The position numbers and the translations under genes were made by a program. The notes beneath the pieces were generated by a model that saw only the letters and a list, made by a program, of their open reading frames with translations, did not search any database and was not told the DNA's origin. A stretch of DNA of 64,000 bases from Alphaproteobacteria bacterium. Its GTDB lineage: Bacteria; Pseudomonadota; Alphaproteobacteria; CALKHQ01. The DNA lies in assembly GCA_965227515.1 (NCBI GenBank), contig CBDDFZ010000001.1:1984001-2048000 (forward strand), read 5' to 3'. Shown here piece after piece: positions 22,865 through 60,861 of this stretch; the stretch's first letter is position 1, and each line of letters begins with the position of its first letter.

Positions 22865-23323
22865 TTGATGTACGCCTTTCCGATGACATTTACCGACGCA
22901 AGCCAATGGGACCCGGATGAGTCCGGTGTCGTCGTCGCTTGTGCCGATCTGCCAGAACTGCAAACGGCGGGCGACGACATGAGCGACGCGTTGTCGATGG
23001 CGCGCGATGCGCTCGCCCTGGTGCTGCAGATCTATGTCGAGGACAAGCGCCCGGTGCCGGCGCCATCCGCCCCGCGCAAGGGCGAAGTGGTGGTGGAGCC
23101 GGACCTCGTCACCGCGTTGCGGACGAAGCTCTATGAGGCGTTGCGCGACCGTGGGGTGACTCAGGTTGCGCTGGCCGAGCGGATGGGCACCAACCGGCGG
23201 ATGGTCGCGCGGTTGTTGGACTGGAAGCACAACGCCAACCCGGCGACGCTGGCCGATGCCCTGCGCGCCCTGGACTACAGACTCGATATCCGTGCCGTCG
23301 ATACGGCACCCCGGGCGGCCTAG
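22865..23323 (+). CDS. hicB: HicB family antitoxin with C-terminal HTH
   Basis: DLPELQTAGD..DALSMARDAL RNase H-like part plus TQVALAERMG HTH. Confidence 0.88.
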   Translation: MMYAFPMTFTDASQWDPDESGVVVACADLPELQTAGDDMSDALSMARDALALVLQIYVEDKRPVPAPSAPRKGEVVVEPDLVTALRTKLYEALRDRGVTQVALAERMGTNRRMVARLLDWKHNANPATLADALRALDYRLDIRAVDTAPRAA

Positions 23324-23335
23324 CTGACCAGAAGA

Positions 23336-23392
23336 CGTGGATGCCTCCTCGGAACAAGTCCGAGGACAGGCTCCACAAGTCCGCGCATGACG
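23336..23392. repeat. Palindromic repeat half (CGTGGATG...CATGACG) with nested hairpin
   Basis: Same ends as the 1991/42423 family; internal CCTCGGAACAAGTCCGAGG hairpin. Confidence 0.7.
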
Positions 23393-23522
23393 GAGTGAGG
23401 TAGAAAGCGTAGATGGGCTAACGGCCCTTGTTTGGTGGCGTGCATGAGTGGTCGTCCCTCAAGATGTCGGTGTCATACACGGAGTCGGGTTTGCCGCTCC
23501 AAGACATCGAGGAGAGACGACC

Positions 23523-24566
23523 ATGAACTACTATGCCGGGATTGACGTTTCTTTGGAATGGTCATCGGTGTGCGTTGTTGACGGCGCGGGCGGGATTGTC
23601 TGCGAGGCTCGTATTGCGAGCACGCCGGCGGGTTTGTTGTTGTGGTTTGGGTCTTTGGGGATTTCGGTTGAGCGGATTGGTCTTGAGGCGGGGCCGTTGT
23701 CGCAATGGCTTGTGCGGGGATGTAGCGAGGGCGGTCTTTCGGTTGAGTTGCTGGAGACGCGTCATGTTGCGCGAGCGCTTTCGACGATGCCGGTGAAGTC
23801 GGACCGCTCGGACGCACGCGGGATTGCTCAGCTGATGCGTGTGGGCTGGTTTCGTCCGGTTCACTGCAAGTCTTTGGCGGCCCAGGAGATGCGGGCCCTT
23901 TTGAAGGGTCGCGACCAGCTCCGCGCGAAGCTGCACGATCTTGAGATGCACCTTCGTGGTCAGCTGCGGAACTTCGGGCTGAAGGTAGGGCACACCACCA
24001 GGCGCAGCTTTTCGACACGTATTTCGGAGCTTGTGGCGGGGCATCCGGTACTGGAGGCGGTGGCGGGGGCGCTGCTGTCGGCACGCGATGGCCTGTTGCT
24101 ATCGTTCACGGCGCTGGACCGGCAGGTCCGGGCGGCGGCGCAGGCCGACGATCGCGCTCGCCTGCTGATGACGGTGCCGGGCGTGGGGAGCATTGTCGGA
24201 CTGACCTACTTGTCGGGAGTGGACGACCCCGGGCGGTTTGCCTCGTCGCGCCTGGTGGGTGCGCACTTCGGCCTGACGCCGACCAAGCGCCAGTCGGGCG
24301 AGAGCGAGGTGATGGGGCGGATATCGAAGGTAGGGGACGCCGATGTGCGCTCGGCCCTCTATGAGGCGGCACACGTGGTTCTGACCCGGCCGATCGAGGG
24401 CGGCTGGCTGAAGAGCTGGGCGATGAAGCTGGCCAGGCGTGCGGGCATGAGGAAGGCGAAGGTCGCGCTGGCGCGCCGGCTCGCCGTGATCATGCACCGG
24501 ATGTGGGTTGACGGCACACCGTTCAACCATGCCGGACCGGTGCGCCCGGCGATGGCGACAGCATGA
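23523..24566 (+). CDS. IS110-family DEDD recombinase/transposase
   Basis: GIDVS, LEAG, KSDRSDA (DEDD), VPGVG, QSG (catalytic Ser), ISKVGD, ALARRL; RBS GAGGAG before ATG 23523. Confidence 0.96.
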   Translation: MNYYAGIDVSLEWSSVCVVDGAGGIVCEARIASTPAGLLLWFGSLGISVERIGLEAGPLSQWLVRGCSEGGLSVELLETRHVARALSTMPVKSDRSDARGIAQLMRVGWFRPVHCKSLAAQEMRALLKGRDQLRAKLHDLEMHLRGQLRNFGLKVGHTTRRSFSTRISELVAGHPVLEAVAGALLSARDGLLLSFTALDRQVRAAAQADDRARLLMTVPGVGSIVGLTYLSGVDDPGRFASSRLVGAHFGLTPTKRQSGESEVMGRISKVGDADVRSALYEAAHVVLTRPIEGGWLKSWAMKLARRAGMRKAKVALARRLAVIMHRMWVDGTPFNHAGPVRPAMATA

Positions 24567-24599
24567 TGGCCGCGGCATAAGGAGAACCGACACACGAGC

Positions 24600-24800
24600 T
24601 TCGACGGGCACCGACACCGGCCCGTCGAGCGCCGTCCCGCGCCGGGACGATGGATCAGGTCAGGCCGCCATCCGGGATGTCGCCTCGCATGAGAGCACGC
24701 TTCCGTAGATTGGACCGACCGATCCTCGCATATCCATCTTGGCGGCGGCCCTGCGCCGACCCCGTACAGAAGCATGACCCAGGCGCCGGGACGACGAAAA
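24600..24800 (+). ncRNA. Putative bridge/seek RNA of the IS1111-type element (copy 1)
   Basis: Non-coding right end with nested stems and four segments matching target and donor junction; boundaries approximate. Confidence 0.75.
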
Positions 24801-24830
24801 AGGGATTGACCAACAATGGCCCGTTACAGA

Positions 24831-24918
24831 AGCCCGGGTGGAGCGGAGCGCAACCCGGGGCCTTCATTGCCGTGATAAGATTTGTCCCCGGGTTTCACTG
24901 CGTTTCACCCGGGCTACG
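24831..24918. repeat. GTAG-type REP doublet (REPIN), left arm interrupted by the IS110 element
   Basis: (CGT)AG CCCGGGTGGAGCGGAGCGCAACCCGGGG ... CCCCGGGTTTCACTGCGTTTCACCCGGGCTACG. Confidence 0.85.
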
Positions 24919-24995
24919 GTTCCACGCACTTCAATTGTCAGCCTCGACATTGCCCAATGGGCGCGCGTCGAGCGTGACAGCCATTGAGGGAATGG

Positions 24996-25040
24996 AAAGG
25001 AAAGAAGGCGGCGGGCCGGTTGCGGAGCAGCCCGCCGCCT
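24996..25040 (-). terminator. Rho-independent terminator of the met operon
   Basis: 11-bp stem AGGCGGCGGGC/GCCCGCCGCCT followed on the minus strand by TCTTTCCTTT, just after the metE stop. Confidence 0.7.
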
Positions 25041-25051
25041 ACCGCCGGGCA

Positions 25052-27346
25052 TCACTCCGCGGCGGCTTGGGGGCGCGCCAACTGAGAGCGGAGGTCGCGC
25101 GCGGCGGTAACCATGTTGGCGAGGGCAGACTCGACCTCCGGCCAGTCACGGGTCTTCAGCCCGCAGTCCGGATTGACCCACACCTGCTCCGGCGCCAGCA
25201 CCTTCAGCGCCTTTTCCAGCAGGTCGCGCATCACCGATGTGTCCGGCACCCGCGGCGAGTGGATGTCATAGACGCCGGGGCCGATCTCCGCCGGGTAGCG
25301 ATAGGCGGTGAACGCGTCCAAGAGCTCCATGTCGGAGCGCGATGTCTCTACCGAGATCACGTCGGCGTCCAAAGCGCCGATGGACTCGATGATGTCGTTG
25401 AACTCCGAGTAGCACATGTGGGTGTGGATCTGGGTGTCGTCGCGCACGCCGCTGGCCGACAGCCGGAACGCCTCGACCGCCCACTTGAGATAGGCCGGCC
25501 AGTCGGCCTGGCGCAGGGGCAGGCCCTCGCGCAGGGCGGGCTCATCGATCTGCACCGCGCGGATGCCGGCGGTCTCCAGGTCGACCACCTCGTCGCGGAT
25601 GGCGAGCGCGATCTGCTTGGTGGTTTCCGAGCGCGGCTGGTCGTCACGCACGAACGACCACTGCAGGATGGTCACCGGGCCGGTGAGCATGCCCTTCATC
25701 GGCTTGTCGGTCTGCGACTGGGCGTAGCGCGACCATTCCACCGTCATCGGGTTCGGGCGCGACACGTCGCCGAAGATGATCGGCGGCTTCACGCAGCGCG
25801 AGCCGTAGGACTGGACCCAGCCATTGGCGGTGAAGGCGAAACCGTCGAGCTGCTCGCCGAAATACTCCACCATGTCGTTGCGCTCGAACTCGCCGTGCAC
25901 CAGCACGTCGAGGCCGATCGCCTCCTGGCGGCGGATGCAGTCGTCGGTCTTCTCCTGCAGGAACTTGGTGTAGGCCGCGTCGTCCAGGTCGCCGCGGCGG
26001 TTGGCAGCGCGGGCCTGGCGCACGTCCTTGGTCTGCGGGAACGAGCCGATGGTGGTGGTGGGCAGCGGCGGCAGGTCGAGCGCCGCGCGCTGCGCCTCCC
26101 GGCGCGCCGGATAGGGGCTCTGCCGGGTCAGCCAGGCGTCGTTCACGCTGGCGGACCGCGCCTTCACCTCGTCGTTGTGGATCCGCTTCGAGGTCTTGCG
26201 GCTGGCCACGGCGGCATCGCTGTCGACGAAGGAGTCGGCGGTGGAGGGCAGGGTGCCGTTGGCCGCCTGCGCGATGGCCACGACTTCGTCCACCTTCTGC
26301 ACCGCGAAGGCGAGCCAGCTCTTCAACTCGTCGTCCAGCTTGGTCTCGCGGTTCAGGTCGACCGGACTGTGCAGCAGGGAGCACGAGGAGGCGACGATCA
26401 CCCGCTCGTCGCCGAGCTTCGCGGCGGTATCGCGCACGGTCTGCAGGGCGGCCGTCAGGTCGGTGCGCCAGATGTTGCGGCCGTCAACGAGGCCCAGCGA
26501 GGCGACCTTGTCGCTGCCGAGGGCATCGAGACCGGCGGCCAGCTCCTCGCCGCCACGGGTCAGGTCGAAGTGCAGGCCGGCCACCGGCAGGCCCGCGGCG
26601 CGCTTCAGGTTCGGGCCGTACGGGCCGAAATAGCTGGTCAGCAGGATCTTCAGGTCGGGCGCTGCCGCGGCCAGCGACCCGTAGGCGGTCTCCAGCGCGT
26701 CGAGCTGCGCATCATCGAGGTCGAGTGCCAGCACGGGCTCGTCGATCTGCACCCACCCCACGCCGGCGCCGGAGAGCTCGGACAGCACCTGCGCGTAGAC
26801 AGCAACCAGGTCGTCAATGCGTTGCAGCGGGTCGAACCCCTCCTCCTTCGACTTGGCGAGCACCAGGAACGAGAGCGGACCCACCAGCACGGGCCGGGTC
26901 TCGACGCCCAGCGCCTTCGCCTCGTTCCAGGCGTCGAGCGGGCGGTTGGCGGTCAGCCGGAAGCTGGTGTCGGCAGTCAGCTCGGGCACCATGTAGTGGT
27001 AGTTGGTGTCCAGCCACTTGGTCATTTCCAGCGCCGGTGCGGCGTCGCTGCCGCGTGCCATCGCGAAATAGGTGTCGAGCGCCGTCGCCTCGTCCCCGAA
27101 GCGCGGCGGGATCGCACCCACCATCACGGCGGTGTCCAGCACGTGGTCGTAGAACGAGAAATCGTTGCTGGCGATGTGGTCGACGCCGGCATCGGCCTGG
27201 CGCCGCCAGTTGGCGGCGCGCAGCTCGCGCGCGGTCGCCTCGAGCGCGTCGGCGGCGATCTCGCCGCGCCAGAACTGCTCCAGCGCCTTCTTTAGTTCGC
27301 GGCGCGCGCCGATGCGCGGAAAGCCGAGGATGGCAGATTGCACCAT
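25052..27346 (-). CDS. metE: Cobalamin-independent methionine synthase
   Basis: GFPRIG..RELK, MTKWLDTNYHY, TTTIGSFPQT, HTHMCYSE, NPDCGLKTR. Confidence 0.98.
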   Translation of the reverse strand: MVQSAILGFPRIGARRELKKALEQFWRGEIAADALEATARELRAANWRRQADAGVDHIASNDFSFYDHVLDTAVMVGAIPPRFGDEATALDTYFAMARGSDAAPALEMTKWLDTNYHYMVPELTADTSFRLTANRPLDAWNEAKALGVETRPVLVGPLSFLVLAKSKEEGFDPLQRIDDLVAVYAQVLSELSGAGVGWVQIDEPVLALDLDDAQLDALETAYGSLAAAAPDLKILLTSYFGPYGPNLKRAAGLPVAGLHFDLTRGGEELAAGLDALGSDKVASLGLVDGRNIWRTDLTAALQTVRDTAAKLGDERVIVASSCSLLHSPVDLNRETKLDDELKSWLAFAVQKVDEVVAIAQAANGTLPSTADSFVDSDAAVASRKTSKRIHNDEVKARSASVNDAWLTRQSPYPARREAQRAALDLPPLPTTTIGSFPQTKDVRQARAANRRGDLDDAAYTKFLQEKTDDCIRRQEAIGLDVLVHGEFERNDMVEYFGEQLDGFAFTANGWVQSYGSRCVKPPIIFGDVSRPNPMTVEWSRYAQSQTDKPMKGMLTGPVTILQWSFVRDDQPRSETTKQIALAIRDEVVDLETAGIRAVQIDEPALREGLPLRQADWPAYLKWAVEAFRLSASGVRDDTQIHTHMCYSEFNDIIESIGALDADVISVETSRSDMELLDAFTAYRYPAEIGPGVYDIHSPRVPDTSVMRDLLEKALKVLAPEQVWVNPDCGLKTRDWPEVESALANMVTAARDLRSQLARPQAAAE

Positions 27347-32973: not shown

Positions 32974-33777
32974 GTGACAGTTTACTAAATACCAGCGGTG
33001 TGCCAAGTTCGGCGTATGGCACGCATCGCACGACTGGTCGTTCCCGGCCTGCCCCACCACGTCACGCAGCGCGGCAATCGCGGCGAGCAGACGTTCTTCT
33101 CGGACGATGACTACACCCTCTACAAGACCCTGCTGGCGGAGGCCGCCAGGAACGCTGGCGCGGAGGTCTGGGCCTATTGCCTGATGCCCAATCACGCGCA
33201 CGTCGTCGTCGTGCCGCAGGACGAGGACGGGTTGCGCAAGACCTTCGCCGACGCCCACCGCCGCTACACCAGGCACATCAATGCCCGACTGGGGGTGACC
33301 GGCCATATGTGGCAGGGCCGCTTCGGCTCGATCGCCATGGACGATGGGTATCTGGCCCATGCCGTGCGCTACATTTCGCTGGCCCCGGTACGCGAGAAAC
33401 TGGTCAAGCGCGCGGACAAATGGCGCTGGTCGAGCGTTGCCGCGCATCTGGCGGGCCGCGACGACGACCTTGTCACCGTCGCCCCGGTTCTGGAGCGGGT
33501 CGGCGACTTCGCGCATTTCCTCGATCAGAAGACAAATGATGCGGAGGCGGACGCATTCGCGGCCCTCAGGAAGTCGGAAACGTCCGGCCGCCCGCTGGGC
33601 GATGCCGACTTCATCGCCGGCCTGGAGCGGCGGACCGGCCGTACCTTGCAGGCTCAAAAGCGCGGCCCCAAGCCGAAGCGGCGCAACTGAATATTTCGGT
33701 GACAGTTTACTAAATACGATTGGGTCAGCGTGCGATCGGTACGGTGGTGCTGGTATTTAGTAAACTGTCACAGAAAT
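32974..33777 (+). mobile_element. RAYT/Y1 transposase module bounded by GTGACAGTTTACTAAATAC repeats
   Basis: 23-bp perfect inverted repeat 32974-32996 / 33749-33771; third 19-bp direct copy at 33699-33717 forms a 3' hairpin doublet. Confidence 0.8.
33016..33690 (+). CDS. REP-associated tyrosine (Y1 HUH) transposase-like protein
   Basis: MAR.AR..VPG.PHHVTQRGN, YCLMPNHAH (HUH), WQGRF, RYI..P, WRWSS, KRGPK tail. Confidence 0.9.
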   Translation: MARIARLVVPGLPHHVTQRGNRGEQTFFSDDDYTLYKTLLAEAARNAGAEVWAYCLMPNHAHVVVVPQDEDGLRKTFADAHRRYTRHINARLGVTGHMWQGRFGSIAMDDGYLAHAVRYISLAPVREKLVKRADKWRWSSVAAHLAGRDDDLVTVAPVLERVGDFAHFLDQKTNDAEADAFAALRKSETSGRPLGDADFIAGLERRTGRTLQAQKRGPKPKRRN

Positions 33778-59096: not shown

Positions 59097-59179
59097 GTAG
59101 CCCGGGTGGAACGAAGTGCAACCCGGGGACATACCTTCACCTCCAAGTTCCCCGGATTGCGCTCCGCACCATCCGGGCT
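59097..59179. repeat. GTAG-type REP doublet, right arm interrupted by IS110 copy 2
   Basis: GTAGCCCGGGTGGAACGAAGTGCAACCCGGGG ... CCCCGGATTGCGCTCCGCACCATCCGGGCT; the missing ACG resumes at 60600. Confidence 0.85.
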
Positions 59180-59209
59180 TCTGTAACGGGCCATTGTTGG
59201 TCAATCCCT

Positions 59210-59410
59210 TTTTCGTCGTCCCGGCGCCTGGGTCATGCTTCTGTACGGGGTCGGCGCAGGGCCGCCGCCAAGATGGATATGCGAGGATCGGTCGGTCCAA
59301 TCTACGGAAGCGTGCTCTCATGCGAGGCGACATCCCGGATGGCGGCCTGACCTGATCCATCGTCCCGGCGCGGGACGGCGCTCGACGGGCCGGTGTCGGT
59401 GCCCGTCGAA
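59210..59410 (-). ncRNA. Putative bridge/seek RNA (copy 2)
   Basis: Same sequence as 24600-24800 on the minus strand. Confidence 0.75.
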
Positions 59411-59443
59411 GCTCGTGTGTCGGTTCTCCTTATGCCGCGGCCA

Positions 59444-60487
59444 TCATGCTGTCGCCATCGCCGGGCGCACCGGTCCGGCATGGTTGAACGGTGTGCCGTC
59501 AACCCACATCCGGTGCATGATGACGGCGAGCCGGCGCGCCAGCGCGACCTTCGCCTTCCTCATGCCCGCACGCCTGGCCAGCTTCATCGCCCAGCTCTTC
59601 AGCCAGCCGCCCTCGATCGGCCGGGTCAGAACCACGTGCGCCGCCTCATAGAGGGCCGAGCGCACATCGGCGTCCCCTACCTTCGATATCCGCCCCATCA
59701 CCTCGCTCTCGCCCGACTGGCGCTTGGTCGGCGTCAGGCCGAAGTGCGCACCCACCAGGCGCGACGAGGCAAACCGCCCGGGGTCGTCCACTCCCGACAA
59801 GTAGGTCAGTCCGACAATGCTCCCCACGCCCGGCACCGTCATCAGCAGGCGAGCGCGATCGTCGGCCTGCGCCGCCGCCCGGACCTGCCGGTCCAGCGCC
59901 GTGAACGATAGCAACAGGCCATCGCGTGCCGACAGCAGCGCCCCCGCCACCGCCTCCAGTACCGGATGCCCCGCCACAAGCTCCGAAATACGTGTCGAAA
60001 AGCTGCGCCTGGTGGTGTGCCCTACCTTCAGCCCGAAGTTCCGCAGCTGACCACGAAGGTGCATCTCAAGATCGTGCAGCTTCGCGCGGAGCTGGTCGCG
60101 ACCCTTCAAAAGGGCCCGCATCTCCTGGGCCGCCAAAGACTTGCAGTGAACCGGACGAAACCAGCCCACACGCATCAGCTGAGCAATCCCGCGTGCGTCC
60201 GAGCGGTCCGACTTCACCGGCATCGTCGAAAGCGCTCGCGCAACATGACGCGTCTCCAGCAACTCAACCGAAAGACCGCCCTCGCTACATCCCCGCACAA
60301 GCCATTGCGACAACGGCCCCGCCTCAAGACCAATCCGCTCAACCGAAATCCCCAAAGACCCAAACCACAACAACAAACCCGCCGGCGTGCTCGCAATACG
60401 AGCCTCGCAGACAATCCCGCCCGCGCCGTCAACAACGCACACCGATGACCATTCCAAAGAAACGTCAATCCCGGCATAGTAGTTCAT
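59444..60487 (-). CDS. IS110-family DEDD recombinase/transposase
   Basis: Protein identical to 23523-24566. Confidence 0.96.
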   Translation of the reverse strand: MNYYAGIDVSLEWSSVCVVDGAGGIVCEARIASTPAGLLLWFGSLGISVERIGLEAGPLSQWLVRGCSEGGLSVELLETRHVARALSTMPVKSDRSDARGIAQLMRVGWFRPVHCKSLAAQEMRALLKGRDQLRAKLHDLEMHLRGQLRNFGLKVGHTTRRSFSTRISELVAGHPVLEAVAGALLSARDGLLLSFTALDRQVRAAAQADDRARLLMTVPGVGSIVGLTYLSGVDDPGRFASSRLVGAHFGLTPTKRQSGESEVMGRISKVGDADVRSALYEAAHVVLTRPIEGGWLKSWAMKLARRAGMRKAKVALARRLAVIMHRMWVDGTPFNHAGPVRPAMATA

Positions 60488-60597
60488 GGTCGTCTCTCCT
60501 CGATGTCTTGGAGCGGCAAACCCGACTCCGTGTATGACACCGACATCTTGAGGGACGACCACTCATGCACGCCACCAAACAAGGGCCGTTAGCCCAT

Positions 60598-60861
60598 CTA
60601 CGCTTGCTCATTCTGCTCCCGAACGAACCGGACAAGCTCGTTCATACGTTCATACGACTGAAACGCGACAATGGCGCGCTCGAACAAGACCCTGGTCACG
60701 AGCGGACCGAACAGAAGTGCCGTCCACCAAGCCCAATGATCGAGCGAGATCAGGACATAGGTGCCGTAGAGACACCCGCCAATGCCTGCCCAGAACAAGA
60801 CCTGAAGGACATAGGGCGAAATCATCTTTCTGAATGTCAGGATGTCGAGCGCGCTTCTCAT
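60598..60861 (-). CDS. Small membrane protein (DUF4282-like)
   Basis: TF.KMISP..LQ.LFW.G and P...RV.FE..IV.F pattern; GGGAGG RBS; stop TAG is the REP GTAG. Confidence 0.75.
   Translation of the reverse strand: MRSALDILTFRKMISPYVLQVLFWAGIGGCLYGTYVLISLDHWAWWTALLFGPLVTRVLFERAIVAFQSYERMNELVRFVREQNEQA

Follow-up and report, generated by a model that had tools for sequence, protein, structure and literature searches.

What fixes the exact base at which an insertion sequence (IS) enters a repeated hairpin, and does sequence beyond the reach of its guide RNA contribute to the choice? This question is raised by a stretch of 64,000 nucleotides from an Alphaproteobacteria bacterium (hereafter the window; positions 1984001–2048000 of contig C1 in the host genome, G000), where two copies of one IS interrupt repetitive extragenic palindromes (REPs) tagged with GTAG. 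The data presented below indicate that this element, assigned to the IS1111 group of the IS110 family, very probably uses RNA-guided DEDD recombination to enter the AG of GT-AG-CC, at the 5' foot of the GTAG-tagged REPs, and that the AAG/AGCAAGC sequence present upstream of some targets is dispensable.

Insertion at a single base of GTAG-tagged REPs

The host genome contains 20 full copies of the IS in total, with 89.7–100% identity to copy 1, and one further copy (C1:998357-999179) that is internally deleted (approximately positions 710–1298 gone) and sits in a normal REP site. The copies and target sequences of the window are the following:

23413–24830, plus strand: IS copy 1, 1418 bp
59180–60597, minus strand: IS copy 2, 99.86% identical to copy 1
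23405–23410, plus strand: AAGCGT (AAGC at −8 to −5 in 4 of 20 copies)
23408–23412, plus strand: left target half CGTAG, where GTAG is the REP tag and AG (23411–23412) the core (20 of 20 copies have GTAG and 15 of 20 have C at −5)
24831–24832, plus strand: AG core of the right junction (20 of 20 copies)
24833–24860, plus strand: occupied REP hairpin arm, CCCGGGTGG...CCCGGGG
24886–24917, minus strand: inverted partner arm of the REP doublet, empty, with GTAG at 24914–24917
60598–60608, minus strand: left flank of copy 2, AGCAAGCGTAG
59150–59179, minus strand: AG core and REP arm CCCGGATGG..., to the right of copy 2

Read across the insertion, copy 1 gives AAGCGT-AG (23405–23412), the IS, AG (24831–24832) and CCCGGGTGG (24833–24841), and copy 2 gives AGCAAGCGTAG on the left of the IS and AG-CCCGGATGG on its right, in agreement with the junctions described in a previous sequence-only reading of the window. 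That reading had claimed that both copies split a REP at one and the same base, in the same orientation relative to it and with a 2-bp AG core, and comparison of all genomic copies extends the claim well beyond the window: the junction reads ...GTAG / ATGGGC...TTACAGA / AG-CCYGGRTG... in each of the 20 full copies, the deleted copy is joined to its flanks in the same way, insertion base and orientation are identical in all of them, and no full copy lies outside a REP or at another base. The invariant flanks among the 20 full copies are GTAG on the left and AGCC.GG.TG on the right. AG is the sole sequence common to both junctions, and the repeat is exactly 2 bp because TAG (left) and AAG (right) differ at the third base.

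The insertion point thus defined falls between the GTAG tag and the stem of a hairpin that shows the features of GTAG-tagged REPs, namely the tag followed by a GC-rich palindrome, many copies and inverted doublets. Nine REP arms are present in the window, two occupied and seven empty, some of them in inverted doublets. A census of the whole genome with a strict pattern (CCYGGRTG plus a hairpin test, so that diverged REPs are uncounted) found 112 empty GTAG-CCYGGRTG hairpins, each with a single AG, which agrees with the earlier proposal that removal of the IS together with one AG restores a normal REP; 19 of the 20 occupied sites passed the same hairpin test. The C at position −5 is a feature of the REP and no preference of the IS, being present at 71% of empty and 75% of occupied sites.

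Contigs from four other sequencing runs collapse at 23408/23409 and at 24837–24863; therefore, copies in other organisms share the (C)GTAG and AGCCCGG junctions. The exact left junction itself had 0 matches in a metagenome scan.

Some junctions showed additional details. The deleted copy is flanked by TTTCGTAG on the left and AG-CCTGGGTGG on the right. The most diverged full copy (89.7%; C1:694776-696202, minus strand) is bordered on its right by a truncated REP start, CCTGGATGGAAC, after which come CCCGTAG and a complete REP, so the target half-site stands there in tandem. In two relatives (loci L072 and L120), the right junction reads ...TTACAGA-AGAAG-CCCGGATG, with three bases over the usual sequence.

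An element of the IS1111 group

The anatomy of the element, given for copy 1, includes the following features:

23523–24566, plus strand: transposase gene, DEDD type, 347 amino acids (Pfam domains and translation)
23419–23436, plus strand: left subterminal inverted repeat, 18 nt, 78% complementary to 24809–24826
24809–24826, plus strand: right subterminal inverted repeat, pairing with 23419–23436

The transposase carries the domains DEDD_Tnp_IS110 (PF01548, E 9.5e-13) and Transposase_20 (PF02371, E 2.3e-20), and its C-terminal domain contains GLTPTKRQSG, which corresponds to the GL-P----S(T)G motif that, together with subterminal inverted repeats and a 3' non-coding region, is described for the IS1111 group (PMC11187229). 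Beyond the left and right inverted repeats, the element extends by 6 nt and 4 nt, respectively (AG excluded), and its non-coding stretch 3' of the gene measures 264 nt (24567–24830) compared with 110 nt 5' of the gene. Domains, motif, subterminal repeats, 3' non-coding region and a site- and orientation-specific insertion without duplication beyond the core all place the element in the IS110 family, IS1111 group, with its putative RNA 3' of the transposase gene. The earlier assignment to REP-targeting IS110 elements like IS621 was therefore right as to family, REP target and AG core, but the subgroup is IS1111 and the element is not IS621-like.

The transposase shows at most about 72% identity to any protein found outside the host genome, and a megablast search of PLSDB with the IS gave zero matches. 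In the right end, GGGATTGAC (TTGACC at 24806–24811) is kept in 43 of 43 aligned relatives, the only observation bearing on the junction promoter that a circular intermediate of this group would be expected to have. Just 5' of the transposase start codon there is a 12-nt inverted repeat (23449–23460 with 23512–23523, 92% complementary), and the pair GGTCGTCCCTC...GAGGGACGACC upstream of the start is also kept in relatives; it may form a hairpin controlling translation.

A predicted two-loop guide RNA

Four guide matches were picked out by eye in the 3' non-coding region, two directed to the target and two to the element's ends, and comparison with relatives placed them in a predicted RNA with the following segments, all on the plus strand:

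24641–24784: predicted seek/bridge RNA core, basal stem 24641–24645 with 24780–24784 (RNAalifold, 43 sequences)
24668–24676: target guide T, CCAUCCGGG, the complement of REP arm CCCGGATGG (top strand); in 7 copies, A replaces G24674
24679–24698: inner hairpin of the target loop, GU(C)GC ... GCAC; closing pair C-G here, G-C or A-U in relatives
24697–24702: ACGCUU, made up of two stem bases of the hairpin (A and C), the conserved linker GC and UU, with which the guide window begins
24704–24708: target guide B, CGUAG, identical to left flank plus core; then AUUGG, resembling the IS left end ATGGG
24733–24739: donor guide UCCAUCU, complement (with one G-U pair) of core and left end, AG+ATGGG, as read from the sequence
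24763–24772: donor guide CGUACAGAAG, identical to right end plus core, with one T fewer than the right end

The relatives comprised 29 loci from genomes and 80 loci derived from 109 metagenome stretches that contained an exact 18-mer around the B guide. The non-coding region was also searched for in 60 relatives and found in none. In the RNAalifold consensus of 43 sequences, 35 pairs are formed and 9 of them show compensatory changes. The consensus has four elements: a basal stem, an outer stem that opens into the target loop, an inner hairpin separating the target guides and another hairpin separating the donor guides, so that target and donor guide pairs alike flank a hairpin. The top-strand match lies 5' of the bottom-strand match, which is the order described for IS1111 seekRNAs (Siddiquee et al. 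2024, PMC11187229). Donor matching also appears in relatives, where CCCCAUC and CCCGUACAGAAG correspond to the ends ATGGGG and CCCGTTACAGA.

On two contigs (L058:1701-1900 and L063:1701-1886), two guide-RNA modules were found about 170–180 nt apart, the second one standing where the normal right end would be, an arrangement that suggests tandem RNA modules.

Guide and target change together

Within the host genome, the seven copies whose guide reads CCAUCCAGG (G24674A) are all in CCTGG arms (7/7), whereas the 13 copies with guide CCAUCCGGG are in CCCGG arms in 11 cases and in CCTGG arms in two (Fisher p=0.0005 for the two groups of copies). Inside one genome, then, one G-to-A substitution in the guide goes with a C-to-T substitution in the REP arm. 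Occupancy follows the quality of the match as well: among perfect-match CCCGGA arms, 9 are occupied and 18 empty, compared with 2 occupied and 59 empty among CCCGGG arms, which pair through a G-U wobble (p=0.0003), so one wobble accompanies an approximately tenfold lower occupancy.

The same correspondence was observed in 41 relatives, where, of 9 possible Watson-Crick pairs, a guide and the right flank belonging to it form 8.0 on average, compared with 6.86 +/- 0.14 for shuffled partners, and none of 5000 shuffles reached the observed fit. The guide classes and their right flanks are:

guide class CCAUCCGGG, right flank CCCGGATG
guide class CCAUGCGGG, right flank CCCGCATG
guide class CCACCCGGG, right flank CCCGGGTG
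guide class AAUCCGCC, right flank GGCGGATT
guide class UGCCCACC, right flank GGTGGGCA

On the left side, GTAG closes 45 of the 47 unique left flanks of metagenome relatives that have this B guide in common. B is constant together with GTAG, and its covariation is confined to L024, L033-L038 and similar relatives, as judged by eye. As comparative evidence, these correspondences argue strongly for RNA-guided site choice.

Proposed mechanism

The mechanism that we propose combines what is observed (insertion site, anatomy, conserved RNA fold and guide–target covariation) with what we infer (expression of the RNA, a circular intermediate and the chemistry). The 3' non-coding region would encode a two-loop seek/bridge RNA of about 145 nt. 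In its target loop, CCAUCCGGG would pair with the REP's 5' stem arm (top strand), directly to the right of the core, and CGUAG with the bottom strand of left flank and core, while in the donor loop UCCAUCU and CGUACAGAAG would recognise the left and right IS ends joined at AG in the circular intermediate. Strand exchange at AG would then leave an AG at each junction, and nothing in this scheme would require the upstream AAG/AGCAAGC.

Several results weigh against this mechanism. Rfam holds no matching family for the guide RNA, and single-sequence minimum-energy folds are no better than shuffles (z −1.6 and −0.8); it was because both were uninformative that the relatives described above were collected. 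The element was not found in any sequencing run listed as RNA. In contigs of four other sequencing runs covering the region 22900–25400, neither a circle junction nor an orthologous empty allele of the copy-1 locus was seen, with no joint across the IS; the search for an empty allele in related reads, proposed earlier, thus came out negative, and restoration of the REP by loss of the IS is consequently read from paralogous empty REPs. In the guide, the window UUC, 5' of CGUAG, is unmatched by the flanks in the host genome, with no enrichment beyond −5, so that left pairing is evident over 5 nt only. Finally, four near-identical copies (three at 100%, one at 99.93%) lie in wobble targets and not in perfect ones. 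These copies (C1:392232, 1952917, 2007413 and 3233663) are presumably the youngest and have CCCGGG or CCTGGG targets, and the perfect CCCGGATGG targets are occupied by slightly diverged copies.

The sequence upstream of the left target

The sequence-only reading had further pointed out that both window copies share an AAG upstream, which the empty REP arms of the window do not have, and that the RNA carries ACGCTT (24697–24702), the reverse complement of AAGCGT; it left open whether this was a coincidence or an extra specificity determinant. Both observations are correct (0 of 7 empty arms of the window have AAG at −8 to −6). At the scale of the genome, AAGC at −8 to −5 is found at 4 of 20 occupied and 1 of 112 empty sites (p=0.0018), an enrichment in line with an extra determinant; AAG is not a requirement, though, since 16 of the 20 occupied sites lack AAGC. 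With the two window copies held out, because the hypothesis arose from them, the comparison is 2/18 versus 1/112 (p=0.05), and after stratification by guide-match class it is not significant (p=0.175). Pooling with the relatives, again held out, gives 7/67 occupied versus 1/134 empty (p=0.002) for AAGC, and pooling for the longer AGCAAGC gives 8/69 versus 1/134 (p=0.0009), about tenfold, in tests that mix genomes and are unstratified. Once multiple testing is corrected for, no flank position is significant by itself (family-wise p about 0.28).

The 11-mer AGCAAGCGTAG is common to three of the four AAGC sites. In the host genome it occurs four times, each time directly at a REP, and three of these four REPs are occupied. 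It is also the left flank at 5 of 45 independent metagenome insertion sites, the sequence further upstream being unrelated, and 0 of 22 empty REPs in the same metagenome contigs have the motif. Among the 45 metagenome flanks, five match AGCAAGC at 7 of 7 positions, none at 6, and the rest at 5 or fewer; the other 40 have A, A and G at −8 to −6 in 12%, 10% and 15% of cases, with a consensus near YCTC. This distribution is all-or-none: the enrichment comes from one 11-mer and not from graded complementarity.

Four explanations for this flank were considered. The best placed of them, to which we would give somewhat less than an even chance, is that AGCAAGC is a rare 5' extension of the REP (a subfamily, or copies that are little decayed), that its excess at occupied sites reflects hitch-hiking on good guide matches or small numbers, and that no RNA contact exists at −11 to −5. 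The all-or-none distribution and the loss of significance on stratification fit this explanation, as do the preferred CCCGGATGG arm at three of the four AGCAAGC sites of the host genome and the presence of the motif beside empty REPs, at one site in the host genome and in genome G402 (L172, L176, L178). Moreover, 11 of the 112 empty REPs match at least 5 of the 7 AGCAAGC positions compared with 3.4 expected (p=0.0006), which resembles a decaying consensus AGCAAKC. The pooled tenfold enrichment and the absence of the motif from the 22 empty metagenome REPs speak against it, and the extension is not a widespread REP flank, as AGCAAGCGTAGCCYG was found in 2 of 400 other genomes of the class, the level given by the reversed control. 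In locus L170 of G402, AGCAAGCGTAG stands directly 5' of GTCCGTAG-GGCGGAT, the REP type targeted by the related IS of G402 itself (L024), so that a different REP family, too, can have the 11-mer beside it.

Less likely, although still to be taken seriously, is that the extra specificity would be structural, with the recombinase sensing the REP stem-loop, as in ISPpu10, and the upstream motif being irrelevant. A target stem-loop is reported to raise ISPpu10 integration (preprint 10.64898/2026.03.19.712850), and the hairpin test passed by all but one of the occupied sites would agree with such a role. However, several insertions in metagenome relatives have the 5' arm without the 3' arm (e.g., L062, L071, L082, L093), and in ISPpu10 it is the left-target side that bears the stem-loop, which here is found on the right.

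It is doubtful that AGCAAGC, directly upstream of the GTAG tag, marks a class of REPs occupied by this clade of IS about ten times more often, in the host genome as in unrelated soil metagenome contigs, through an optional third target contact, read either by ACGCUU or by the recombinase. The specific version, in which ACGCUU pairs with the displaced top strand AAGCGT (−8 to −3) and favours such sites, is more doubtful still. ACGCUU is a perfect 6-nt complement of AAGCGT, AAGC is enriched both within the genome and in the pooled held-out set, every motif-bearing relative has ACGCUU (although the metagenome relatives were chosen by an exact 18-mer that includes it and so cannot reveal covariation at that segment), and extra flank pairing has been reported for IS621 (PMC11208160, legend of Extended Data Fig. 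7). Nevertheless, the inner hairpin stem ends with A and C of this segment, next to a pair that covaries (C-G in this RNA but G-C or A-U in relatives), and relatives with a different left guide have kept CACGC as well, so by homology the segment is made up of stem bases, the conserved linker GC and the opening UU of the guide window instead of being a free guide. In addition, no graded preference is seen in the 40 other metagenome flanks, AGC at −11 to −9 is unaccounted for, a related IS in G061 with the same RNA segment has the motif at 0 of 4 sites, and the proposed duplexes would lie one RNA base apart on opposite DNA strands.

Pure coincidence of the AAG in the two window copies, which would fit its absence from 16 of 20 copies, the lack of any single position surviving correction and the held-out within-genome values (p=0.05 to 0.18), is very improbable given the recurrence of AGCAAGCGTAG at three host sites and five independent metagenome sites with unrelated upstream sequence, which chance does not give.

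Three other ideas were discarded. Carriage of the motif along with the IS was ruled out, as the three AGCAAGC copies belong to different sequence lineages, the sites have nothing in common further upstream of the motif, and the motif also occurs without the IS; an upstream gene terminating in the motif was rejected, as its TAG closes no consistent open frame; and pairing with the donor-loop segment AGCAAGUG of most relatives was dropped because the host RNA reads AGCAUGAC there and the segment varies freely among relatives. In locus L131 (53-170), a tandem duplication was found whose 59-nt unit consists of AGCAAGCGTAG and the first 48 nt of the IS left end, with both junctions at an AG.

In conclusion, RNA-guided insertion at the AG of the REP is the reading that we retain, and AGCAAGC most likely belongs to the REP unit itself. 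The IS may nevertheless have a true preference for AGCAAGC sites, direct pairing with ACGCUU being the least likely mechanism for any such preference.

Other features of the window

Two matches to PF01797 (Y1_Tnp) were found, one at 32989–33690 of the window (plus strand, 234 codons) and one at C1:1603908-1604246 of the host genome. The former is a candidate REP-associated tyrosine transposase (RAYT); a simple pattern scan of both strands between 32300 and 34300 found no GTAG-type REP start (GTAG + SSYG). At permissive thresholds, Rfam related the REP doublet (24830–24916) to a miRNA precursor family with 26.8 bits compared with a gathering threshold of 99, which was rejected as a long-hairpin artefact.

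Comparison with known systems

REPs are said to have been recognised as targets of IS110-family elements by Tobes and Pareja in 2006, and Hiraizumi et al. reportedly described the IS621 bridge RNA system in 2024. The present locus offers a clean natural case of an IS1111-type element whose target choice is very probably RNA-guided, and its guide and occupancy figures are natural data useful for reprogramming seek/bridge RNAs. It adds no new principle, as REP targeting dates from 2006, the RNA mechanism from 2024 and a target-encoded determinant from a 2026 preprint. The recurrent AGCAAGCGTAG flank is the sole point not covered by known biology and, if functional, would mean that sequence outside the guide footprint biases site choice. 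In the portion of the literature on these elements that was covered, a linear motif upstream of the left target was not met as a determinant, no search having been aimed at it.

SeekRNA and bridge RNA were both described in 2024 (PMC11187229; PMC11208160). Like ISEc11, ISPa11 and ISKpn4, as presented in the former source, our element has a DEDD transposase of about 340–350 amino acids, subterminal repeats with short extensions, a non-coding region 3' of the gene, the same guide order and no duplication beyond the core, and ISPa11 also has a REP-type target logo (PMC11187229). Unlike these three, it inserts into GTAG REPs of an alphaproteobacterium, of the CCCGGATGG type, and its activity and RNA are predicted from sequence. 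Like IS621 (Durrant et al. 2024, PMC11208160), it has a core of 2 nt and a REP as its target, and a two-loop RNA is predicted to bind both target and donor. The two differ in that the IS621 RNA sits in the left end, upstream of the gene, the core is CT and the guide order is reversed; the donor guides of our element flank a hairpin in a multi-branch fold, as noted for IS1111 orthologues in the same paper.

The target repeats resemble the GTAG-tagged REPs of Di Nocera et al. 2013 (PMC3733652) in the GTAG tag followed by a GC-rich hairpin, the many copies and the inverted doublets, and a limited term search of that paper met no conserved AGCAAGC extension 5' of GTAG. Finally, ISPpu10 and ISPpu9 of Pseudomonas putida (10.64898/2026.03.19.712850; PMC12288879) are likewise IS110-family elements that insert into REPs, and the preprint asks, as is asked here, whether specificity has a further layer; for ISPpu10, bench tests are reported to show that the stem-loop of the REP target adds specificity beyond base pairing (10.64898/2026.03.19.712850). 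Their core is CT and their extra determinant a stem-loop, whereas the candidate determinant here, identified through sequence comparison only, is a linear 7-mer upstream of an AG core.

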